A program made the position numbers and the translations under genes. Shown here piece after piece: positions 50,521 through 63,994 of a stretch of 64,000 nt of DNA (its first letter is position 1; every line of letters starts with the position of its first letter). The stretch is from positions 32,001-96,000 of the forward strand of contig JAVKHO010000008.1 of the NCBI GenBank assembly GCA_031459915.1, in the 5' to 3' direction. The notes beneath the pieces are model-generated. The model searched no databases. It saw only the letters and a list, made by a program, of their open reading frames with translations, and was not told the origin of the DNA. Origin of the DNA: Candidatus Tepidifontimicrobium thermophilum. Lineage in GTDB: Bacteria > Sysuimicrobiota > Sysuimicrobiia > Sysuimicrobiales > Sysuimicrobiaceae.

Positions 50521-51426
50521 GTGACAGGGCGTCTGAGCTCCCCACCGAGGGCCACCATCGGCGGTCAGGCGGTCCTCGAGGGCGTGATGATCCGCGGGCC
50601 CCACTGGGTCAGCACCGCGGTGCGCCGCCCGGACGGGGCCATCGCGGAGGAGGTGCTGCACCGACCGAGCGCGCTGGTCCGCAGGCGGTGGGCGCGGCTG
50701 CCGGTGGTCCGTGGGGCGGTGGTGCTGTGGGAGGCCCTGGTGCTGGGCACGCGGGCGCTCGTGTACTCCGCCAGCCAGGCGGTAGCGGGCGAGCTGGGAC
50801 GGCCCCTCTCGAGCCGCGAGGTAGCCCTGAGCTTGGGGCTGGGCGTGGGCCTCGCGGTGGGCCTGTTCTTCGTGTTGCCCACGGTGTTGGTGCGGTGGGT
50901 GGATCCCGGTTGGGGGGTGGTGTCGTTCAACCTGGTGGAGGGGCTGGTGCGCGCTGGGGTCCTGGTGTTGTACGTGGGCGCGGTGGGGGCGTTCCCGGAG
51001 ATCCGCCGGGTGTTCATGTACCACGGCGCCGAGCACAAGGTGGTGAACGCGTGGGAGCGCGGAGTGCCGCTGGTGGTGGACGAGGTGCAGAAGCAGAGCC
51101 GGTTCCACCCCCGGTGCGGGACGTCGTTCTTGCTGGTAGTGGTCCTGGTGGCGGTGGGGGTGTTCTCGCTGCTGGGCAAGCCGCCCCTGTGGGCGCGGGT
51201 GGTTTCGCGGGTGCTGCTGGTCCCGCTGATCGCGGGCGTGGCGTACGAGGTCATCCGGGCCGGGGCGCGGTCGCGGTGGCTGCGCCCCCTGGTGGCGCCG
51301 GGGATCTGGCTGCAGCGGTTGACCACGCGGGAACCGGATCCCCGCCAGGTGGAGGTGGCCATCCGCGCCCTGCAGGCGGTGCTGGATCGAGAGGACTCAG
51401 GGTCGTTGGAGCGGACGGTGGTGTGA
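50521..51426 (+). CDS. DUF1385 domain membrane protein
   Basis: [35 protein letters not shown]. Confidence 0.92.
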
Positions 51427-52511
51427 TGAAGAGCGTGCGGGATCTGCTGGAGGAGCGCGTGGCGCGGCTGGAGCAGCGGTATGAGGAACTGGGCCGGCTG
51501 CTCGGGGACCCGTCCGTCCTGCAGGATCCCGGACGGTACCGGGAGCTGGCCAAGGAGTACGCGGAGCTGGAAGAGGTGACCCAGCGGGCTAGGGCGCTGC
51601 GCCAGGTGGAGGCGGAGCGGGCCCAGGCCGAGGCCCTGCTACAGGACCCCGACCCGGCGCTGCGGGACCTGGCGGCCCAGGAGCTGGAGAGGCTGGACGG
51701 GTTGAGGCAGGCCCTGCGGTCGGAGCTGGAGGATCTGCTGGCACCCAGGGACCCGTACGACGACCGCAACATCTTCCTTGAGATCCGACCCGCCGCGGGC
51801 GGCGAGGAGGCCGCCTTGTTCGCCGGGGACTTGCTCCGGATGTACACCCGGTACGCAGAGCGGCGCGGGTGGAAGGTGGAGGTGCTGGAGCTGAGCCCCT
51901 CGGACCTGGGCGGGGTGAAGTCCGCCACGTTGAGCATCGCGGGCAAGGGGGCGTACAGCCGGTTGAAGTACGAGAGCGGCGTGCACCGGGTCCAGAGGGT
52001 CCCCGCCACCGAGGCCGCGGGCCGCATCCACACCTCCACCGCCACCGTGGCGGTGCTGCCGGAGGCGGAGGAGGTGGAGGTGGAGATCCGGCCGGAGGAG
52101 CTGGAGGTGGACACCTTCCGGGCTGGCGGCGCGGGCGGCCAGAACGTGAACAAGGTGGAGACCGCGGTGCGGATCAAGCACCTCCCCACGGGGATCGTGG
52201 TGACGTGCCAGGACGAGCGGTCCCAGCACCAGAACCGGGAGAAGGCCCTGCGGATCCTGCGGGCGCACCTGCTGGAGCTGCGGCGCCGGGAGCAGCAGGC
52301 GCGCATCGCGGCTACCCGGCGGCAGCAGGTGGGCACCGGGGAGCGCAGCGAGAAGATCCGGACGTACAACTTCCCGCAGAACCGCGTCACCGATCACCGG
52401 ATCGGTCTGACCCTGCACCGCCTGGACGCAGTGCTGGACGGGGAGCTGGACCCCATCCTGGACGCCCTGGTGGCCCACGCCCGCGGCCAGGCGGCTCAGG
52501 CGGCGCGCTGA
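51426..52511 (+). CDS. prfA: Peptide chain release factor 1
   Basis: VQRVPATE (PxT motif), [23 protein letters not shown]. Confidence 0.98.
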
Positions 52512-52520
52512 AGGAAGCGC

Positions 52521-53426
52521 ATGCGGCCAGTTCCTCCCCGGACCGCTTTCTGCAAAAGCGCGGTACCCAGTAGCGTCCGCGAGGCGTACCTGTGGGGCAG
52601 GGAACACCTGAGCGCCTGCGGGGTGGAGGCGGCCGCCCTGGAGGCGGAGGTCCTGCTGCGCTGTGCCCTCGGGGTGACCCGGGCGCAGCTGTACGTGCGG
52701 TGGCCGGCCCCGGTGGAGGAGGGTGCCTGGCGCCGCTACGTGGAGCTGCTGGAGCAGCGCGGGTCCGGGAGGCCGCTGGCGTACCTGGTAGGCGAGCGGG
52801 AGTTCTGCGGGCTGCCGTTCTGGGTGGACGAGCGGGTGCTGGTGCCTCGACCCGAGACGGAGCACCTGGTGGAGGTGGTTCTGGAGGCCACGCGGGACGT
52901 GAAGGATCCCGCGTACGTGGACGTGGGCACGGGTAGCGGCGCGGTGGCCGTGGCGCTGGCGGTCCGTCGGCCGGACGCCACGGTGTACGCCACGGACGTG
53001 TCCCGGGACGCCCTGGCCGTGGCGGAGCGGAACGCAGGACGCCACGGGGTGTCCGGGCGCGTGCAGCTGTTGCACGGGGACGCGCTGGAGCCGTTGCTGC
53101 AGGCTGGCCTGCGGGCGCACGCGGTGGCGGCGAACCCGCCGTACGTGCCTCCCTCCGCGCGCTCGGAGCTGCCCCCGGAGGTGCTGGCCGAGCCGGAGGT
53201 GGCGGTGTTCGCGCCCGGCCCGCGCGGGGTTGAGCTGCACGAGCGGATCGCGGACCAGGCGCGGGCGGTGTTGCGGGAAAGCGGGGTCCTCGCGTTGGAG
53301 GTAGCGGCAAAGTGGGACCAGGCGCGGCAGGTCATGCGGACCCTGGAGCGGATGGGCTACCGGGAGGTGCGGGCGGTGAGGGATCTGGCGGGGCTGGAGC
53401 GCGTGGTGGTGGCGCGGTGGAGGTGA
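52521..53426 (+). CDS. prmC: Release factor glutamine methyltransferase
   Basis: VLVPRPETE, DVGTGSG, NPPY; follows prfA. Confidence 0.95.
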   Translation: MRPVPPRTAFCKSAVPSSVREAYLWGREHLSACGVEAAALEAEVLLRCALGVTRAQLYVRWPAPVEEGAWRRYVELLEQRGSGRPLAYLVGEREFCGLPFWVDERVLVPRPETEHLVEVVLEATRDVKDPAYVDVGTGSGAVAVALAVRRPDATVYATDVSRDALAVAERNAGRHGVSGRVQLLHGDALEPLLQAGLRAHAVAANPPYVPPSARSELPPEVLAEPEVAVFAPGPRGVELHERIADQARAVLRESGVLALEVAAKWDQARQVMRTLERMGYREVRAVRDLAGLERVVVARWR

Positions 53427-53518
53427 GCGATCGCCGGTTGCGGCGCTGGCCCCACGGCCGTACAGTGGGGCCGAGGCCCGCTTCGACCGGCCATCCGTTC
53501 GTGGAGGGACCTGAGCCT

Positions 53519-54190
53519 ATGGTGGAGCTGCTGTTGAACCCCGTAGCGGTGCTGCGTGTGGACGCCGACGCTCCAGTTCCCAGAAGGGCTGTGGAGGCCC
53601 TCCGGGCGGGGGACGTGGTGGTTTACCCCACCGACACCGTGTACGGGCTGGGCTGTGACGCCACCAACCCATCCGCCGTCCGCCGGGTCTTCGAGATCAA
53701 GGGAAGGCCTCCGGACCAGCCCGTGCCCGTGCTGCTCGCGGACGTCCGACAGGCCGATGAGCTCGCGGAGATCCCTGAAGGAGCTCGCAGGCTCATGAAG
53801 CGGTTCTGGCCCGGACCGCTCACGGTCGTGCTGCCGTCCCGGGGTGTGGTGGCGGAGCTGGTCACCGCGGGGACAGGCACCGTGGGCCTGCGGGTGCCGG
53901 ACCACCCCGTGCCGAGGGCACTGGTGAGGGCGTGCGGGTCCCCGCTGGTGGGGACAAGCGCCAACTCTACGGGAAGGCCCGCGCCGGTGACGGTGGCGCA
54001 GGTGCTGTCGGACCTGGACGGCCGTGTGGGCCTGGTGCTGGACGGCGGCCGCTTGGCGGGCCGGCCCTCCACCGTGGTGGACTGCACCGGGGTCCGGCCG
54101 CGGGTGCTGCGGCCCGGCCCCATCCCTGCGGAGGTCGTGGAGCGCGTGTGGGACGCCGGGCAGGTGGAGGTGGTCTCGGCCGCGAAGTAA
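53519..54190 (+). CDS. tsaC: L-threonylcarbamoyladenylate synthase (Sua5/TsaC)
   Basis: YPTDTVYGLG, KGRP, FWPGPLT, TSAN. Confidence 0.93.
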   Translation: MVELLLNPVAVLRVDADAPVPRRAVEALRAGDVVVYPTDTVYGLGCDATNPSAVRRVFEIKGRPPDQPVPVLLADVRQADELAEIPEGARRLMKRFWPGPLTVVLPSRGVVAELVTAGTGTVGLRVPDHPVPRALVRACGSPLVGTSANSTGRPAPVTVAQVLSDLDGRVGLVLDGGRLAGRPSTVVDCTGVRPRVLRPGPIPAEVVERVWDAGQVEVVSAAK

Positions 54191-54200
54191 CGACCCGGCC

Positions 54201-54653
54201 GTGCGCATCGCCATCGCCAGCGACCACGCGGGCTACGCCCTCAAAGAGGAGCTGAAACGGTTCGTCCAGGACCTGGGACACGAGGTCCAGGACTTCGGCA
54301 CCCACACTCCGGACCCCGTGGACTACCCGGACTTCGTGGTCCCCGCGGCGGAAGCGGTGGCGCGGGGGGAATGTGACCTCGGCATCGTGCTGGGCGGCAG
54401 CGGCAACGGGGAGGCCATGGCGGCCAACAAGGTACCGGGCGTGCGGTGCGCGGTGTGCTGGGAGTCCTACACCGCGCGGATGGCGAGGGCCCACAACGAC
54501 GCCAACGTGCTGTCCCTGGGGGCGCGGGTGATCGGGCCGGAGCTGGCCCGGGAGATCGTGCGCACGTGGCTGGAGGCCCGCTACGAGGGCGGCCGGCACG
54601 ACCGGCGGCTCGCGAAGATCCGGGCGGTGGAACGAAAGTACGGGAGGGGGTGA
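54201..54653 (+). CDS. rpiB: Ribose-5-phosphate isomerase B
   Basis: IASDHAG, DYPDF, GSGNGE, HNDANVL, GGRHDRR. Confidence 0.96.
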
Positions 54654-54660
54654 ACCTGTC

Positions 54661-55935
<1,275 letters not shown>

Positions 55936-55981
55936 GGAGCGTGGGGGGCTTCGGGCGGGTCAGGCGGAAAGGGGTGCGAGG

Positions 55982-56611
55982 GTGTCCAAGGTCTTCGTGG
56001 TGGATCACCCCCTGATCCAGCACAAGGTGGCGATCCTGCGCGACCGCAACACCCCCCACAAGGAGTTCCGGGAGCTAGTGGAGGAACTCAGCATGCTCCT
56101 GGCCTTCGAGGCTACCCGGGACCTGCGGACGCGGGACGTGGAGGTGGAAACGCCCCTCGCCCGGACCCGGGGGAAGTCCATCGCCGGCTACGAGCTGGCG
56201 GTGGTCCCCATCCTGCGGGCGGGTCTGGGGATGGAGCCGGGCATCACCAAGCTGATGCCCACGGCGCGGGTGGGGCACGTGGGCATCTGGCGGGACCCCG
56301 AGACGTTGGAACCGGTCACCTACTACGTCAAGCTGCCCCCGGACATCGCGGAGCGGGAGGTCATGGTGTTGGACCCCATGCTGGCCACAGGCGGGTCCGC
56401 GGCGGAGTGCGTGCGGCTCATCAAGGAGCGCGGGGCGACGCGGTTCAAGCTCATGTGCCTGATCGCGGCGCCCGAGGGCATCGCGCGGGTACACCGGGAC
56501 CACCCGGACGTGGTCATCTACACCGCGGCGGTGGACGAGCGGCTCAACGACCACGGCTACATCCTCCCGGGCCTGGGGGACGCAGGGGACCGGCTGTTCG
56601 GCACCAGATAG
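55982..56611 (+). CDS. upp: Uracil phosphoribosyltransferase
   Basis: [29 protein letters not shown]. Confidence 0.98.
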
Positions 56612-56612
56612 G

Positions 56613-57092
56613 GTGGAGCGGCCCGGCTGGGACGAGTACTTCATGAGCATGGCGGCTTTGGCCGCCACGCGGTCCACCTGTACCCGGCGGCGCGTGGGTG
56701 CCGTGGTGGTGAAGGACCGCATGGTGCTGTCCACCGGGTACAACGACACCCCGAGGGGACTCCGGAACTGCGGCGACGGTGGCTGCGCGCGCTGTGCGGG
56801 GGCTACTCCGCCGGGGACCGGCCACGACACGTGCCTGTGTATCCACGCCGAGCAGAACGCCATCATCCAGGCGGCCTACCACGGGGTGGCCATCGCGGGG
56901 GCCACGCTGTACTCCACCTACCAGCCGTGCCTGGTGTGCGCGAAGATGATCGTGAACGCGGGGATCCGCCGGGTGGTGTACGCGGGCGACTATCCGGACC
57001 CCATGGCAGCCCGGCTCCTGCAGGAGGCGGGCGTGGAGCTCGTGCGGTACACGGGTCCCTTGCAGGCCCTGGCGCCGGCCGCCTTCCCCTGA
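56613..57092 (+). CDS. dCMP deaminase family protein
   Basis: RPGWDEYFM, HAEQNA, PCLVCAK. Confidence 0.93.
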   Translation: MERPGWDEYFMSMAALAATRSTCTRRRVGAVVVKDRMVLSTGYNDTPRGLRNCGDGGCARCAGATPPGTGHDTCLCIHAEQNAIIQAAYHGVAIAGATLYSTYQPCLVCAKMIVNAGIRRVVYAGDYPDPMAARLLQEAGVELVRYTGPLQALAPAAFP

Positions 57093-57093
57093 G

Positions 57094-57765
57094 ATGGCGG
57101 CCCGGATCCTAGTGGTGGACGACGAGCCGCCCCTGGTCGACGCCATCCGGTTCGCCCTCCAGCGGGAGGGCCACGAGGTGGCGGAGGCCCTGGACGGCCT
57201 GCGGGCCCTGGAGCTGGCCCGGTCCGAGCGGTTCGACCTGATCCTACTGGACGTCATGCTGCCGGGCATGAGCGGGTTCGAGCTGTGCCGGATCCTGCGG
57301 CAGGACAGCGACGTCCCCATCGTGCTGCTCACCGCCCGGTCGGACGAGACCGACCGCGTGGTGGGGTTGGACCTCGGTGCGGACGACTACGTCACCAAGC
57401 CTTTCTCCATGCGGGAGCTCATGGCCCGGGTGCGGGCGGCCCTGCGTCGGCGGGGGATCCAGCAGACAGCTCCTCTGTCGGTGGGCGACCTGGTGTTGGA
57501 CCCCGCGCGCCACGAGGTGCGTTGCGGCGGCCGGTCCTTGCCCCTGAGCCCCAAGGAGTACGACCTGCTGGAGGTCCTGTTGCGAAACGCACGGCGGGTC
57601 CTCAGCCGCGGCCAGCTGCTGGAGCGGGTGTGGGGCTACGACTATGAGGGGGACGAGCGCACCGTGGACGTGCACGTCTCGTGGCTTCGGCGCAAGCTGC
57701 GGGAGGCGGGCTCCGCGGTGCGCATCGAGACCGTGCGCGGAGTTGGGTACCGTCTGGAACCCTGA
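57094..57765 (+). CDS. OmpR/PhoB family response regulator
   Basis: ILVVDDE, LLDVMLP, DDYVTKPF, RTVDVH, TVRGVGY. Confidence 0.96.
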   Translation: MAARILVVDDEPPLVDAIRFALQREGHEVAEALDGLRALELARSERFDLILLDVMLPGMSGFELCRILRQDSDVPIVLLTARSDETDRVVGLDLGADDYVTKPFSMRELMARVRAALRRRGIQQTAPLSVGDLVLDPARHEVRCGGRSLPLSPKEYDLLEVLLRNARRVLSRGQLLERVWGYDYEGDERTVDVHVSWLRRKLREAGSAVRIETVRGVGYRLEP

Positions 57766-57792
57766 TCCGCCCTGTACAGGGCACCCAGCATC

Positions 57793-59094
57793 GTGAGTCC
57801 CCGGACATGGTGGGTTCTGGCGGCGGTGGCCGGTGCCGCGGCCGCGTGGGCTTGGGCCGCGGCGGACCGGTGGGCTGCGGCCTTCGGGTGGCTGGCCTGC
57901 GTCGCATTCCTGGTGGCGGGCTGGCGGGAGTGGTCCTGGCGGCGGGCCGTTCGGGCTGTCGCGCAGGGACTCCGCGACCCGCGCGCCTTGGAGCGGGAGG
58001 GGGCTTCTGGCCGGGAGCTGGCCGCGGCGGTGGAGTCCGTGCTGCGGGAGGTGCGGGAGGACCTGCAACGGGCCCGGGCCCGGGGGAGCCACCTCCGGGA
58101 GCTGGTGGAGGCGCTCCCGTGGGGTCTCGTGGAGCTGGACCACCGGCGGCGGGCGGTGTGGGTGAACCGTCCCGCGGCGGCCCTGCTGGGCGTCCAGCGC
58201 GAGCAGGCGGCGGACACGTCCGCGGTGGCGCTCTTTCGACGCCACGAGGTGGACGAACTACTGGACCGTGCAGAGCGGGCCGGCGAGGCGGTGCGGGACC
58301 TGGAGCTGGGCGGCGTGCTGCAGGTGGTGGCCCGTCGGCTGGCCTCAGGCGGGTTCTTGCTCCTGGTGCAGGACGTGACCCAGGATCGTCGGGCGGAGGC
58401 GGTGCGGCGCGACTTCGTGGCCAACGTCTCCCACGAGCTGCGCACCCCCCTTGCGTCGGTGCGGGCCATGGCGGAGGCGCTGCGGGACGGCGCACTGGAA
58501 GACCCACAGCTGGCGGCCCGGTTCCTCGCTCAGATGCTCCAGGAGGTGGACCGTATGAGCCGGCTGGTGAACGACCTGCTGGACCTGTCCGCCCTGGAGG
58601 CCGGGGTGGTGCGCCTGCGGTGGGAGGACCTCGAGGCGGAGGAACTGCTGGAGGCGGTGGCGCGGCGGTACGCGGCCGCAGCCGAGCGGAAGGGAGTGGC
58701 CCTGGTGGTCCAGCCCGGAAAGGCGCGGGTCCGGGGCGACCGGGATCGGCTGGAGCAGGCCCTTGGGAACCTGGTGGACAACGCGGTCAAGTACACACCG
58801 TCTGGCGGCCAGGTGGTGCTCAAGGTAGAGCTACGCGACGGGGAGGTGTCTCTGGTGGCGGAGGACACGGGCCCAGGGATCCCTCCAGAGCACCTCCCCC
58901 GGGTGTTCGAGCGCTTCTACCGCGCCGACCCTTCCCGCAGCCGGGCGGAGGGAGGGACAGGGCTGGGGCTGGCCATCACCAAGCACATCGCCCTGGCTCA
59001 CGGGGGCCGGGTGGAGGCGGCCAACCGCCCGACCGGCGGCGCCCGGCTGGCGGTGGTCCTGCCTGCGGCCGGCGGCGGAACGCGGGAACGGTAG
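57793..59094 (+). CDS. PhoR-like sensor histidine kinase (PAS + HisKA + HATPase)
   Basis: FVANVSHELRTPL, NLVDNAVKY, DTGPGI, GTGLGL. Confidence 0.95.
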   Translation: MSPRTWWVLAAVAGAAAAWAWAAADRWAAAFGWLACVAFLVAGWREWSWRRAVRAVAQGLRDPRALEREGASGRELAAAVESVLREVREDLQRARARGSHLRELVEALPWGLVELDHRRRAVWVNRPAAALLGVQREQAADTSAVALFRRHEVDELLDRAERAGEAVRDLELGGVLQVVARRLASGGFLLLVQDVTQDRRAEAVRRDFVANVSHELRTPLASVRAMAEALRDGALEDPQLAARFLAQMLQEVDRMSRLVNDLLDLSALEAGVVRLRWEDLEAEELLEAVARRYAAAAERKGVALVVQPGKARVRGDRDRLEQALGNLVDNAVKYTPSGGQVVLKVELRDGEVSLVAEDTGPGIPPEHLPRVFERFYRADPSRSRAEGGTGLGLAITKHIALAHGGRVEAANRPTGGARLAVVLPAAGGGTRER

Positions 59095-59099
59095 CCGGC

Positions 59100-60716
59100 T
59101 CAGCCAGACCGCGCACCCACGCCCGATACGGCACCAGTCCCGAAGACCCGCTGGTAGACGTCCTCCGCGTGGCTGGTGGGTAGCGGCTCCGCCTCCACCA
59201 TGCGGTACGTGCGCCGGCCCTGGGCGTCCCGCTCCGCCCGCAGGAACAGCACGGAGCCGGATCGCCGGGCGCGGAAGCGATCCGCCAGTTCGAAGAAGTG
59301 AGTAACGAAGAACACGCGGACCCCCGCTTCCGTCAACGCGTCCAGAACCTGGCAGGCGATCTCCGACCCCTCGCGCTCGTGGGTGGCGGAGAAGGACTCG
59401 TTGCACAGGAACACCGAGCGCGCGGTGGCGAGGTCCACGAGGGTTCGCATGCGACGGAGTTCCTCCACGAACTTGCCGGACTCCAGGCGCGGGTCCTCCT
59501 CCCGCTTGAAGTGGGTCAGCACCCCGTCACAGACGCTTACGGCGAAGGACTGGGCGGGCACGAACAGGCCCGCCTGCGCCATCAGCCAGGCGATCCCCAC
59601 GCTCCGGAGGAAGGTGGTCTTGCCCCCGGAGTTGGGCCCGGTGATCAGGACGAGGCGCTTGCCGTTCGCCTCGAGGTCGTTGGGGACGACAGTTCGGTCG
59701 GTTGCCAGGGCCAGCACGGGGTCGTAGAGGCCTCGGGCGGAAAGGTTGTAGCCTGCGGGATGCACGGAGGGCAGGCAGGTGGGGAATCCGCGCCGGCGAA
59801 GCTGAGTGTGCAGCCGCAGACCGCCCACGTAGAAGGCGAGTTCGGCGCGCAGGCAGGAGAAGAAGTCCCGGACGTGGTCGGCGGCCTGGCCCACGGCCGT
59901 GGCTGCTGAGGCCAGAGCCCGGTCCCGCAGGGCCTCCAGGGCCTTGACACCCGCCTCATCGCGAGGAGACAGCTCGAAGGTGTAGGCATCCTGGCCCCGA
60001 CGGAACCACGCCTTCCACCGCTCCAGCCAGCTCCGGGGGCCCTCCGGAGGCGGGTGCAGGAGGAGGTCGGTGGGCTTGTTGGCAGGCCCAAGACGCGCGC
60101 TCCAAAGGTGGCCGTGTGGTAGCCTCAGAGCGTCCAGGTGGTGTTGCATCTCACCGAGATAGGAGTCCTCCAGGTCACGGTGCAGCGCTGCGAACAAGCG
60201 CCTCCAGCCCTCGCTGTGGAAGCGAGGCGCGTGGCGATCCGCGGCGGACTTCAGCCGGCGGAGGGAGCCCAGCAGCGCCGCGAGAGTCCCGACGGACTCG
60301 CGCAGCACCCAGTCGGGGTAGCGGGCGAGGACGCCCAGATACCGGCCTTTGAGTTTGTCTGCGGCCTCCAGACTGACCCCATACAGCTCCAGAACAGCGT
60401 CCGGGTTGTCCAGACAGTCTGCCAGTACGGCCTGTCGGTGGGCCACCACAGCAGGGTCTGCGGACGTGCCCTCCAGCAGGAGCCTCCGGCTGACCTCGAA
60501 GACCAGGTCGTCCTCCCCGGCCATGGCCTCCAGGAGGGGTAACAGCCCCAGGTCCTGGACTAGGTCGTCCACGTTTGGGGGAAGTCCCGCGGAAGGATCG
60601 AAGCCTGGGGGAGGGGCAGTGTGGTGGCCGGCCCGCAGGCCCGCTCGGACCGTGGCGGCCTGCAGGGCCCAGCGCCAGTCGAAATCCCGGTCGGGGTACA
60701 GTAGGCGCGGGGTCAT
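59100..60716 (-). CDS. Short MutS-family ATPase B (domain V, no mismatch-recognition or Smr domain; MutS4-like)
   Basis: GLYDPVL, ITGPNSGGKTTFLRSVG, AQAGLFVPA, SGKFVEEL, FLCNESFSAT, FVTH. Confidence 0.88.
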   Translation of the reverse strand: MTPRLLYPDRDFDWRWALQAATVRAGLRAGHHTAPPPGFDPSAGLPPNVDDLVQDLGLLPLLEAMAGEDDLVFEVSRRLLLEGTSADPAVVAHRQAVLADCLDNPDAVLELYGVSLEAADKLKGRYLGVLARYPDWVLRESVGTLAALLGSLRRLKSAADRHAPRFHSEGWRRLFAALHRDLEDSYLGEMQHHLDALRLPHGHLWSARLGPANKPTDLLLHPPPEGPRSWLERWKAWFRRGQDAYTFELSPRDEAGVKALEALRDRALASAATAVGQAADHVRDFFSCLRAELAFYVGGLRLHTQLRRRGFPTCLPSVHPAGYNLSARGLYDPVLALATDRTVVPNDLEANGKRLVLITGPNSGGKTTFLRSVGIAWLMAQAGLFVPAQSFAVSVCDGVLTHFKREEDPRLESGKFVEELRRMRTLVDLATARSVFLCNESFSATHEREGSEIACQVLDALTEAGVRVFFVTHFFELADRFRARRSGSVLFLRAERDAQGRRTYRMVEAEPLPTSHAEDVYQRVFGTGAVSGVGARSG

Positions 60717-62245
60717 GGGACGAAGCGCTGGCGGACGTCGTGGTACGTGAGTCGGTACCTCTGGGCCAGGGCCTCCGCGTACGCGCGCCCGTCCGCTGGA
60801 CGACGCAGCACGCGGAAGGTGCGCCCTTCGGGCTGGCCTGGCGGCACCGTGGCTACCAGGCTCACGGTCTTCTCGTTCAGGGAAGCCAGCTCATCGAGGA
60901 ACGTCACCCACACGCACAGGCCGCCAATCTCCAAGAGCCGGCCCAGCAGCCGTCGGCTCAGGGTGCGGGCGTCGCGGAGGGCGGTGGAGGAGAGGATCTC
61001 GTTGACGATCACCACACTTTTGGGGGTCGCAACCTGGAGGATCTCACGGATCCTCAGAAGGTCGTCTTCCAGTTTGCCGTGCAGGTCCAGCGTGTACTCT
61101 CCGCGGGGAAAGTGGGTGAGGACGTGGTCCGGCACCGGAAGGGCGGCCTGCCGGCCAGGGACCGGGCAACCGAGCGAAGCCAGGTAGAAGACCTGACCCA
61201 CCGCGCGGGCGAAGGTAGTCTTTCCGCCCTGGTTGGGACCGGTGACCACCAGGGCCCGCTCCGGAGAACGGAAGAGGAAGTCGTTGAGGACCGGCACCCG
61301 GCCGTGCGCCACCAGCTTCGCGGCCAGTGCGAGGTCGAAGCAGCCCTGGGCGAAGGCTTCTGAATTGTCCGCGCGCAGGGTGGGCAAGCAGAAGGGCAGG
61401 CCTGCCGCCTCGAGGGGAGCGAGGAAGTCTAGGTAGCCCAGGTAGAACTGGGCCTCCCGGTCGAAGGCGTCGATCCAACGTGCCGGCAGTCCCCCGCACG
61501 TTCTCCGGAAGTCCGCCACCCGAAAGAACAGGTCCGGGTTCAGGCGGGAAACCCCTTCCAGGATCTGCGCTTCCACGTGGTTCAGCTCCGCGGAGTGCCG
61601 GAACTCGAAGGCGTACGGGGTGCCGTGGGCCTGTCGGAAACGCTCGAAGGTGGACCGCACCACTTCCGCGTAGTCGGGCTCCCCCCGGTAGGGGCGGACG
61701 GTGACCCTCAGGCCCTGGACGAGCACCGCAAAGCGCAGGGACGATAGCTCCGCCTGCAGGCTCTCGGCGGCCTCCGCGAGGCTGCGGAATGCGGGGGAAG
61801 CGGCGTACGCGGCCAGCAGGTCGCGGAAGCGCACGAGCCCACGGCTGTGGAGCGGACAGGAGGACAGGCCCTCCAACAGCGCGAGGACTGCCTGCACGTA
61901 GAGGTGGGCCGCGTCAAGGAACCAGCGGTCTTTCTCCAGCGTGGAGTATGCCTTGTCCGCACGGCGCAGGTGGGCCCGCACCGCGCGGAGGGCCGAAGCG
62001 AAGGCACGGACCGCGTCCGACACTCGGGGCTCCCGGAAATCGCGGAAGACCTCCTGGCGGAAGGAGACCGTGTCGCTGTCCCGCAGCGGGGTGTAGAAGA
62101 CGGGTTCCAGGCCGTACTCCCCCCGGTCCGCCACGATGGCCTCCACCACCCGGTCCAGCTCTAAGTCCCGCAGGCATGCGGGCGGTCGTTCCCGGAGCGC
62201 CGGAGGTTGGCCTGAAGGAAAAAGGAGGCTCGAAACCTCGTCCAT
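60713..62245 (-). CDS. Short MutS-family ATPase A (domain V; MutS4-like)
   Basis: VTGPNQGGKTTFAR, LGCPVP, GKLEDDL, VIVNEILSST, WVTF; its stop overlaps the start of partner B (ATGA). Confidence 0.88.
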   Translation of the reverse strand: MDEVSSLLFPSGQPPALRERPPACLRDLELDRVVEAIVADRGEYGLEPVFYTPLRDSDTVSFRQEVFRDFREPRVSDAVRAFASALRAVRAHLRRADKAYSTLEKDRWFLDAAHLYVQAVLALLEGLSSCPLHSRGLVRFRDLLAAYAASPAFRSLAEAAESLQAELSSLRFAVLVQGLRVTVRPYRGEPDYAEVVRSTFERFRQAHGTPYAFEFRHSAELNHVEAQILEGVSRLNPDLFFRVADFRRTCGGLPARWIDAFDREAQFYLGYLDFLAPLEAAGLPFCLPTLRADNSEAFAQGCFDLALAAKLVAHGRVPVLNDFLFRSPERALVVTGPNQGGKTTFARAVGQVFYLASLGCPVPGRQAALPVPDHVLTHFPRGEYTLDLHGKLEDDLLRIREILQVATPKSVVIVNEILSSTALRDARTLSRRLLGRLLEIGGLCVWVTFLDELASLNEKTVSLVATVPPGQPEGRTFRVLRRPADGRAYAEALAQRYRLTYHDVRQRFVP

Positions 62246-62667
62246 CAGTGGACCACCATCACGGGGCAGTGGGCGTACCGGAGCACGCGCTCGGAGACCG
62301 AGCCCAGCATCCAGCGCTGCACAGGCGTGAGCCCGCGTCGGCCCAGGACGATGAGGTCGAAGGCTTCTTCACGGGCCACCCGTACCAGGACCTCTGCGGG
62401 GTGGCCCACCTCGGTGCGCAGGGTCACCGGAACCCCCGCCTTGCGGGCCTGGTCCCGGGCCCAGCGGAAGGCCTCCGCCAACGGTCCACGGGACTGAGCC
62501 ACGGCTGCGTCCACCTCGCCCTGCAGCTCCGCGAACTCCGGCGGACGCACTACCGCCAGCGCGACCACGTCCGCGCGGTACCGGCTGGCCAGGTCCAGAG
62601 CGGCCAGCAGCGCCTTTCGGGCTGCCGGGGATCCGTCGTAGCCGACCAGTACGCGCCGGAACATCAT
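62245..62667 (-). CDS. Universal stress protein
   Basis: VLVGYDGSPAA, GHPAEVL, DLIVLGRRG, LGSVSERVLRYAHCPVMVV. Confidence 0.95.
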   Translation of the reverse strand: MMFRRVLVGYDGSPAARKALLAALDLASRYRADVVALAVVRPPEFAELQGEVDAAVAQSRGPLAEAFRWARDQARKAGVPVTLRTEVGHPAEVLVRVAREEAFDLIVLGRRGLTPVQRWMLGSVSERVLRYAHCPVMVVH

Positions 62668-63851
62668 TCACCTCCGGGGGCCAGGGCCAGCTCGGGAGCC
62701 GCCTGCTGCACGTGGTGGGCGGGAAGGAAGAAGCGGTTGGCGATCCAGGTGGGCACCACCGCGCTGGCCACGACCGCGCTCACGAGGAAGGAGTACTGCG
62801 CCTGGTCGATGATGCCGTGGGTGAGGCCGTACAGGGAGGAAATGGTCCCGAAGGTGAGCCCGGTGGACATCAGCAGGGTCGTGTACATGGCCTCGTCCCG
62901 CGCGTACCGGTACGCCCGGGTCAACGGGAACACGCCGGCAAACTTGCTCAGGGCTTTGGCCGCGAAGAGCACCGCGAACGTCCCCAGACCGCCCGCCACG
63001 ACGGGGAGCTGGACCAGCAGCCCCGCGCGGATGAAGTAGAAGGGGGTGAGCAGCCCGAAGGTGAGGCTGCGCAGGCGTCGGACCAGTTCGTGGTGGCGGC
63101 CCACGGTCCCCGCCAGGGCCATTCCCAACACGTACGCGGGGAGGACCGCTTCGGACCCGGACCACGCCGCCAGGGCGCCCAGGGCGAACAGCACCCCCAG
63201 GAGGAATTTCACTTCCAGCTCAGAGGTCCGGCCAGCGAAGCGGCGCAGCACGGGCCGGGCGGCGCGGGCGCAACCCCATAGGGCGACCCCGAGAGCTGCG
63301 ACGAACACTACGGTGCGCCAGCTGAAGGGAGCGAACAGGAGCCCCAGAGCCACCACCGTCCCCAGGTCGTTGATGAAGCACGCTGCGAGGATGACCTTGC
63401 CGTACTCGGTGCGGTTGATCCCCAGTTCCAGGAGCACCGCGTACACGACCGCCACGGAGGTGGTGGACAGGGCGACCCCTGCGACCCAGCTGGCCTGGGG
63501 AGCCCACCCCAGGACCTGCCGGGCGGCCCACGCGGCGCCCAAAAAGGGAGCCAGGAAGCCGGCCAGACCCATCACCGTGGCCTCCTTCCAGCGCCTGCGG
63601 AAGGCGTCTGGGTCGAGCTCGGCTCCCGCGAGGAAGGTGAGGACCACCGATCCGGTACCCGCGAGGAAAGCCACCCAGCCATCCCGGACTCCGGGCAACG
63701 AGGTGTGGCCGAAAACCCCCATGAGCAGCTGGCTCAAGATTCCGACGAGGATCTCGGTGAGGGCTACGGAGACCCGCAGCCAGCTTCCCAGAAGGGCGGC
63801 GAGCAGGGCGAGGGCCAGCCACGCTGCCGCGGTCCACCAGATGGTTTCCAT
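62664..63851 (-). CDS. Cation:proton antiporter (CPA2/Na+/H+ exchanger family)
   Basis: Highly hydrophobic polytopic protein; FLAGAELD, ALSTTSVAVV, ACFINDL, PFYFIRAG. Confidence 0.9.
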   Translation of the reverse strand: METIWWTAAAWLALALLAALLGSWLRVSVALTEILVGILSQLLMGVFGHTSLPGVRDGWVAFLAGTGSVVLTFLAGAELDPDAFRRRWKEATVMGLAGFLAPFLGAAWAARQVLGWAPQASWVAGVALSTTSVAVVYAVLLELGINRTEYGKVILAACFINDLGTVVALGLLFAPFSWRTVVFVAALGVALWGCARAARPVLRRFAGRTSELEVKFLLGVLFALGALAAWSGSEAVLPAYVLGMALAGTVGRHHELVRRLRSLTFGLLTPFYFIRAGLLVQLPVVAGGLGTFAVLFAAKALSKFAGVFPLTRAYRYARDEAMYTTLLMSTGLTFGTISSLYGLTHGIIDQAQYSFLVSAVVASAVVPTWIANRFFLPAHHVQQAAPELALAPGGE

Positions 63852-63880
63852 GGAGTCGACCTCCGGCGGGGTAGAGGCCG

Positions 63881-63917
63881 AAAAAGATTGGCCCCTACCC
63901 GACTTGGGTAGGAGCCA
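63881..63917 (-). terminator. Riboswitch-linked intrinsic terminator
   Basis: Minus strand GGCTCCTACCC-AAGTC-GGGTAGGGGCC followed by AATCTTTTT; the 5' arm overlaps the aptamer 3' end. Confidence 0.75.
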
Positions 63918-63957
63918 TCAGCCTCCGTGGGAGGCGGTTCGGGCGGGCTCCATCGCC
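63908..63957 (-). ncRNA. Fluoride (crcB motif) riboswitch aptamer
   Basis: Minus strand GGCGATGGAGCCCGCCCGAACCGCCTCCCACGGAGGCTGATGGCTCCTAC matches the recalled consensus GGCGATGGxGTTCGCC...AAxCGC-hairpin-GCTGATGxCTCCTAC, including the pseudoknot pairing GGAGCC/GGCTCC. Confidence 0.93.
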
Positions 63958-63964
63958 CGCGGGC

Positions 63965-63994
63965 ATTATCCGGCAAGCTCCCCGCGGCCGTCAA
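63965..63994 (-). promoter_or_regulatory. Sigma70 promoter TTGACG-N18-GATAAT for the riboswitch operon
   Basis: The -10 ends 7 nt before the aptamer's first G. Confidence 0.75.

Follow-up and report, generated by a model that had tools for sequence, protein, structure and literature searches.

A MutS4 gene pair behind a predicted fluoride riboswitch in Candidatus Tepidifontimicrobium thermophilum, and its altered ATP site

What would a bacterium use two short MutS-like ATPases for, when neither carries the mismatch-recognition motif and both appear to be switched on by fluoride? The question is raised by a 64,000-nucleotide stretch of the Candidatus Tepidifontimicrobium thermophilum genome (contig JAVKHO010000008.1, positions 32,001 to 96,000), hereafter the window, near the end of which two overlapping genes, mutS4A and mutS4B, close an operon headed by a predicted fluoride riboswitch. 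The family, its gene layout and the presence of a "mutS" behind the crcB motif are known (PMC2190696, PMC5742357, PMC2864571; published work is cited here and below from the accessible parts of its text). Among open-access papers (subscription papers were not covered), we found none that ties MutS4 to fluoride or describes the rebuilt ATP site reported below.

The gene pair and its family

The two genes and their main sites are the following.

60713-62245, minus strand: MutS4A, 510 amino acids (aa), with a lever core, a small clamp-equivalent segment and an ABC ATPase
61217-61240, minus strand: Walker A of MutS4A
60998-61003, minus strand: Asn-Glu (NE) of Walker B in MutS4A
60899-60901, minus strand: H-loop Phe of MutS4A
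59100-60716, minus strand: MutS4B, 538 aa, architecture as in MutS4A
59616-59639, minus strand: Walker A of MutS4B
59397-59402, minus strand: NE of Walker B in MutS4B
59298-59300, minus strand: H-loop His of MutS4B

The stop of MutS4A and the start of MutS4B overlap in an ATGA (60713-60716), in line with the two coupled frames of 510 and 538 aa proposed in a first-pass annotation made from the letters alone. That annotation had also seen neither a GxFYE motif nor an Smr nuclease, and both absences held: GxFYE is missing from A and B by motif check, and MutS_V is the sole Pfam domain above cut-off (57 bits in A, 85 bits in B), with no Smr domain at that level. In their ATPase part, A and B share 38% identity over 191 residues. 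The host genome also encodes a full MutS1, which has a GxFYE and a MutL on the same contig, and a MutS2, both with the usual Asp-Glu (DE). MutS4B carries an N-terminal insertion (residues ~8-45) that is present in its nearest relatives and absent from most MutS4B, of ~500 aa. A recent foreign insertion was considered on composition and rejected, G+C content being 0.68-0.71 against 0.71 for the contig.

MutS4 was defined by Lin, Nei and Ma in 2007 as two neighbouring genes, A and B, the stop of the first overlapping the start of the second, whose products bear a MutSac (MutS_V) domain but no mismatch or Smr domain; their function was unstudied (PMC2190696). Accessions are listed in Table S3 of Kim et al. 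2017 (PMC5742357), on which our comparison with published MutS4 rests; four of them are genes in our plasmid regions L001, L003 and L006. Over 503 aa, the window A protein shares 42% identity with published MutS4A WP_083134047; the B protein shares 43-49% with three published MutS4B over ~490 aa. Two quick trees were built on the ATPase domain, with subsets of 56 and 37 rows picked for taxonomic spread. In both, A and B each formed their own group and stood together apart from MutS1 and MutS2; support in the Shimodaira-Hasegawa-like approximate likelihood ratio test was 97 and 99 for A, 95 and 79 for B, and 98 and 93 for A+B. Domain content, gene overlap and tree grouping thus all agree with the published definition, and the tandem MutS4-type pair that the first-pass annotation had named, and for which it had proposed a Pfam scan and a phylogeny, is almost certainly MutS4A/MutS4B.

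The window copy is an ordinary member of this family: it has the tandem A-then-B overlap and the sole ATPase domain, its A and B fall into separate groups that include bacterial as well as archaeal proteins, and no difference sets it apart from MutS4 in print. The accessible text of PMC2190696 and PMC5742357 makes no mention of a riboswitch, of fluoride, or of the site changes (NE, G-K, F) described below. Membership of three related families was rejected. Scores were 48 and 83 bits for A and B against a cut-off of 642 for MutS1 (TIGR01070), which also has the mismatch-recognition domain and GxFYE that the pair lacks; 44 and 84 bits against 400 for MutS2 (TIGR01069), with no Smr and no nesting of MutS4 in MutS2; and 28 and 70 bits against 300 for KamC (NF052383). 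On this last model the host MutS2 (213 bits) and MutS1 (179 bits) score far above A and B, and no KamC above cut-off was present in the five genomes searched. A search of the ESM Atlas returned MutS_V clusters only.

The fluoride riboswitch at the locus and in relatives

Upstream of the pair, the minus strand carries the following features.

63965-63994, minus strand: sigma-70-type promoter-like site, TTGACG-18-GATAAT (located in our locus L089 at 1995-1966, that is window 63994-63965; two sites found against 0.1 expected in shuffles)
63902-63966, minus strand: fluoride riboswitch aptamer (crcB motif, RF01734), 54 bits, gathering threshold 34, E 3.6e-12
63880-63917, minus strand: intrinsic-terminator-like hairpin with U run, 12-pair stem, z -4.4, 0 of 200 shuffles folding as well
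62664-63851, minus strand: CPA2-type cation:proton antiporter, 395 aa, first gene of the operon (PF00999, 132 bits; TIGR00932 below cut-off)
62245-62667, minus strand: universal stress protein (USP), 140 aa (PF00582, 125 bits), its stop overlapping the MutS4A start

The aptamer is the single Rfam RNA in the window, its 3' end is overlapped by the hairpin, and the genes behind it overlap one another in the order CPA2 antiporter, USP, MutS4A, MutS4B. This layout of promoter, aptamer and overlapping terminator is the one described for the crcB motif as a transcription ON switch (PMC2864571), and an ON switch is what we predict here. In the published fluoride regulon (PMC2864571, PMC5533749), antiporter and USP genes likewise follow an aptamer overlapped by a terminator; the "mutS" named in PMC2864571 was read as DNA repair, whereas in the window it is the MutS4 pair. 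Neither CrcB nor CLC gave a match in the host genome (96% complete). In the eight genomes of the genus (the host and G434-G440, several of them incomplete), MutS4 occurs without CrcB in five, CrcB without MutS4 in two, and both in one; because the MutS4 genomes of the genus are mostly without CrcB, the antiporter or an MFS protein may be an unrecognised fluoride exporter. Past the window end (contig 96027-98925; L089 2028-4927) lies a second, weaker fluoride riboswitch (28 bits with Rfam) with a similar promoter and terminator; the unit behind it encodes a DUF6062 protein and an MFS transporter and lies immediately upstream of the MutS4 operon.

Is the riboswitch a feature of the family or of this locus? 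We examined the best 80 of about 570 relatives confirmed in the scanned share of species genomes, a sample that leans to close relatives, with a model built from 39 riboswitches found by pattern (hence partly circular; a hit is 25 bits or more). A match was found in 64 of 80 loci, and in 54 of the 61 that span at least 12 kb. It lay on the same strand within 500 nucleotides upstream of A in 40 of the 66 loci having at least 500 nucleotides there. Rfam found the riboswitch in 49/49 of the genomes of this sample (50/80 loci sent), at about one per Mb, so that scattered riboswitches would be expected in about 2.5% of 22-kb stretches, Rfam counts being lower bounds. Base pairs of the riboswitch covary, the pseudoknot included, in a structure that was chosen from the consensus.

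Independently of the self-built model, the host class was searched with Rfam only. MutS4A is present in 15 of its 94 genomes (the unpublished genome G374 included); all 15 have the riboswitch, 14 of them on the same strand within 2.1 kb upstream. The pair also occurs in 9 genomes of 301 sampled from the archaeal Thermoplasmatota, and in all eight further loci from this phylum (L120-L127) the sole model match stands directly before A. Rfam at its gathering threshold reports no riboswitch in these eight loci (one scored 27.5 bits at the E-value threshold); the archaeal variants have a shortened first stem that places them below gathering, and are missed by standard annotation. One of these loci also holds a HEARO RNA match (L121:18373-18611, 89 bits), and in a separate locus, L067, three MutS4 pairs lie within 12 kb, each with a model match nearby.

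The published MutS4 fit the same picture: a riboswitch lies about 30 nucleotides before M. branderi MutS4A, and the island of Kim et al., with enolase, hydrogenase-like genes and MutS4 (PMC5742357), has the make-up of fluoride islands. In 2010 Weinberg named "mutS" among the genes downstream of the crcB motif and read it as DNA repair (PMC2864571; the text of its supplements does not contain the word), PMC7266159 repeats the label "DNA repair proteins", and the review PMC11139923 does not contain "MutS". Judged from the sequences, the MutS4 pair is very probably fluoride-induced; the first-pass annotation had assumed fluoride control, and the 54-bit RF01734 match and its recurrence in relatives bear it out.

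The ATP site, the dimer and its neighbours

Walker A is intact in both subunits (GPNQGGKT, A 336-343; GPNSGGKT, B 360-367). Walker B reads VIVNEILSST in A (N415, E416) and FLCNESFSAT in B (N439, E440), and the H-loop reads VTF in A (F449) and VTH in B (H473), confirming the Asp-to-Asn change and the VTF noticed beforehand. Loss of NE among homologues had been named as what would refute the proposed heterodimer outside mismatch repair, and NE proved near-invariant. It stands in 121/121 A and 120/120 B rows of close homologues (the best 120 hits of each protein, with the query included in the counts), together with an H-loop Phe in 121/121 A and a His in 120/120 B. A wider set, from loci in many bacterial phyla and in archaea, has NE in 88/88 A proteins (a fragment lacking Walker A was excluded; five A rows and one H-loop row were read by eye) and in 91/93 B; the comparison set of archaeal MutS1 has DE in 20/20. 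Two further changes affect both subunits: the MutS signature S-T-F has become G-K-L/F, with G390/K391 in A and G414/K415 in B at least 90% conserved, and the G-x-G pattern after Walker B is lost.

The same Asp-to-Asn change, with the Glu kept, has been engineered in E. coli MutS (D693N; PDB 3k0s): the metal site is empty, ATP affinity goes from 0.034 to 0.5 uM, about 15-fold lower, and the ATPase, uncoupled from DNA, turns over 1.9 per min at 10 mM Mg and faster at high Mg (PMC2857095). A dead site was therefore rejected as the meaning of NE. As D693N weakens Mg binding yet keeps its ATPase, the analogy points to loose Mg coupling in both sites, with any asymmetry resting on the His. The analogue is an impaired, engineered homodimer, whereas the MutS4 change is natural, near-invariant and joined by further changes of the site. 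An asymmetric pair with one more degenerate site had been proposed: the asymmetry is backed by a Phe in the H-loop of A only, whereas the Asp-to-Asn change is found in both subunits and the catalytic Glu is kept in each. We consider the A and B sites probably asymmetric; that they are loose for Mg and tolerant of fluoride is a tentative suggestion drawn from the same analogy.

On the indirect evidence of A-B fusion proteins and a fixed gene order, A and B are likely to form the heterodimer that had been proposed. A stands directly before B in 76/80 loci (two are split and two have no A in view). A search for long forms gave five proteins (P0242, P0243, P0244, P0246 and P0245), namely four A-B single chains, three of them related at 73-77% and from three different sources, and one DUF6062-MutS4A chain. 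The predicted single-chain models, with mean predicted local distance difference test scores of 89 (A) and 86 (B), align to the lever-to-ATPase part of MutS proteins (Z 24-30, root-mean-square deviation 3.5-11) and match residues about 1-500 of MutS2 end to end; matches to MSH2 and MutS1 are as good or better. The clamp-equivalent segment, whose borders were set by eye, has ~55 residues, against roughly 85 in the host MutS1 and 100 in the host MutS2. In B it is basic (mean charge +4.8, positive in 94% of 93 homologues).

Around the pair, no gene is constant. Among the 80 loci, dynamin-like or DUF6062 proteins occur in 29 (dynamin-like alone in 24), enolase in 26, group-4 hydrogenase-like subunits in 24, DUF190/CBS in 18, MFS in 17, CrcB in 16, USP and His-phosphatase in 15 each, CPA2 in 9 and pyrophosphatase in 8. 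Enolase, the hydrogenase-like subunits, DUF190/CBS, MFS and CrcB count as fluoride genes, which speaks for the fluoride link. A+B is thus the unit. The USP and the antiporter were rejected as fixed partners on these counts. The dynamin-like GTPases have intact G1/G3/G4 motifs and are often the first gene behind a fluoride riboswitch of their own (L046:7360-9183, L025:3872-5770, L073:4221-6023, L055:14276-16033 and others). An Enterobacter plasmid repeats the four genes of the window beside crcB, gpmA and eno, which are genes of the tested E. cloacae FRM resistance operon; MutS goes unmentioned in the accessible text of that study (PMC5533749). On the other side of the pair, a convergent histidine kinase ends at 59094, 5 nucleotides from the MutS4B stop; it belongs to a PhoP/PhoR-like two-component pair closing a plus-strand run (50521-59094). 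The housekeeping genes of this run we take to be prfA, prmC, Sua5, rpiB, glyA, upp and a dCMP deaminase.

What the pair may do

Magnesium fluoride complexes (MgFx) trap NTPases. Starting from the promoter, aptamer, overlapping terminator and four coupled genes seen in the sequence, fluoride binding would, from the known behaviour of the riboswitch, block the terminator and turn the operon on. A and B would then form a single dimer of MutS type; of its two composite sites, the B-built one, having kept its His, may hydrolyse ATP, and the A-built one, with Phe for His, may mainly bind it. By analogy to E. coli D693N, Asn would make both sites hold Mg less tightly. The conserved signature Lys may extend over the dimer interface and make up for the lost positive charge, giving a motor hard to trap as ADP-MgFx. 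The substrate would be DNA, in the form of recombination or stalled intermediates, the weakest step of the scheme, and ATP would be spent on clearing or processing protein-DNA complexes stalled under fluoride. We thus put forward, as a possibility of somewhat less than even weight, that MutS4A/B is a fluoride-induced two-subunit ATPase clamp on DNA that reads no mismatches and clears stalled protein-DNA complexes, which would help the cell to withstand fluoride.

For the substrate taken by itself, DNA comes close to an even call. We favour it because the B clamp is basic, because the pair has moved between bacteria and archaea, which would fit a universal substrate, and because of the one MutS4 experiment that we found in print, on recombination: MutS4 in M. 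smegmatis gave more and longer recombinants (55 vs 22 colonies; PMC5742357). The non-DNA substrate considered in the first-pass annotation is not supported over DNA by these data.

Several observations weigh against a fluoride-induced clamp on DNA. The recombination effect was small and was obtained without fluoride in a foreign host (PMC5742357), and no DNA-repair gene recurs among the annotated neighbours (43 clusters). The clamp segment of A averages a neutral charge (-0.2, with positive values in 44% of 80), and the segment is partly of low confidence in both models. The end of A is altered in fusion P0246, a chain that may stem from a frameshift artefact, and NK replaces NE in two B proteins of the wider set. 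As to fluoride, besides the lean of the sample to close relatives, 16/80 loci (7/61 of those of at least 12 kb) have no riboswitch match, class genome G421 has only an opposite-strand riboswitch 0.7 kb away, and 9 of the 15 class genomes with MutS4 come from one family and are not independent. The riboswitch is also present in 27/79 MutS4-negative genomes of the class (26/78 without G374, the class then counting 93), so the pair is dispensable for the regulon.

Other readings place the same ATPase elsewhere. That the pair is an ordinary mismatch repair MutS, as database names and the "DNA repair (mutS)" of PMC2864571 have it, is hardly credible: the mismatch-recognition domain and GxFYE are missing, the host already has a full MutS1 with MutL beside it, and 20 of 58 MutS4 genomes, many of them incomplete, give no MutL match. 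The role outside mismatch repair proposed beforehand is supported on the same grounds, and the independence of the MutS4 dimer from MutL is well supported. Another likeness is to MutS2, which shares lever core, clamp and ABC ATPase from the N-terminus (PMC10897456; PDB 7qv3, 7vuf, 9kce) and which splits disomes by ATP hydrolysis, Smr mutants still doing so in vitro (PMC10897456). The dimer could by this likeness be a MutS2-like motor splitting fluoride-stalled ribosomes, for instance those blocked by elongation factors trapped with GDP-MgFx, the riboswitch taking the place of the collision sensor. The model over residues 20-510 aligns to the B. subtilis MutS2 (disome) chain 1-507 with Z 27.1 and root-mean-square deviation 5.7 over 421 residues, and a basic clamp suits rRNA as well as DNA. 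However, MutS4 lacks the coiled coil and the KOW and Smr domains, the latter two being the recruiters of MutS2 to collisions (PMC10897456), it consists of two different subunits with NE and G-K instead of DE and S-T, it is not nested in MutS2, and MSH2 and MutS1 match its structure equally or better. One pair serving bacteria and archaea, despite their differing ribosomes, would also count against it. We regard ribosome rescue, stalled elongation factors included, as unlikely.

A role in enzyme reactivation is more doubtful. KamC, a MutS-like protein, is taken from its family name to help reactivate an aminomutase; we found no paper on it. Its model describes a MutS-like reactivase ATPase of 508 positions, also short and outside mismatch repair, which B matches weakly (70 bits), and fluoride-inhibited enzymes are common near the pair, enolase, His-phosphatase and pyrophosphatase among them (26, 15 and 8 of 80). 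The dimer might thus pry Mg-fluoride-phosphate from enolase, phosphoglycerate mutase or pyrophosphatase. Set against this, both subunits fall far below the KamC cut-off and below the host MutS1 and MutS2, no aminomutase is found among the annotated neighbours, no enzyme is a constant neighbour and none lies in the window operon; we hold it quite improbable. It is harder still to favour a sink, a sensor or a transporter partner, in which the dimer would bind nucleotide-Mg-fluoride, or power or regulate the antiporter or an MFS exporter. An ABC-type ATPase with an amide in its metal site, in a host without CrcB or CLC match and in a class where CrcB accompanies MutS4 in only 3/15 genomes, would suit such a role, but no membrane partner is constant (CPA2 9, MFS 17, CrcB 16 of 80), lever and clamp regions are conserved, a dimer of 115 kDa would make a poor sponge, and weak Mg binding, to judge from D693N, would disfavour MgFx capture. 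Finally, MutS4 could be a passenger on mobile fluoride islands, a general recombination factor that plays no part in fluoride stress, as its patchy spread (15/94 class genomes), the 48 plasmid records and the recombination phenotype without fluoride (PMC5742357) would allow. The riboswitch directly before A in 40/66 and in 8/8 archaeal loci, in otherwise differing contexts, M. branderi included, makes this very unlikely.

In a broader proposal, which we consider rather unlikely as it stands, MutS4AB would be a dedicated fluoride-rescue motor, its sites rebuilt for loose Mg (Asn for Asp, Gly-Lys for Ser-Thr, and in one subunit Phe for His) so as to escape trapping by fluoride, that frees machines jammed as Mg-fluoride complexes, be they DNA-bound enzymes, ribosomes or metabolic enzymes. 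If true, it would add a third arm to fluoride resistance, beside export and enzyme overproduction, common to bacteria and archaea. MutS4 has lacked a function since 2007, and the "mutS" behind fluoride riboswitches has been called DNA repair since 2010; equating the two provides an inducer, a screenable phenotype and residues to revert, and turns the matter into a testable question. A fluoride-tolerant site, if confirmed, would reveal a way for a P-loop ATPase to avoid being trapped by Mg-fluoride, which may be useful for microbes that make or break organofluorines.

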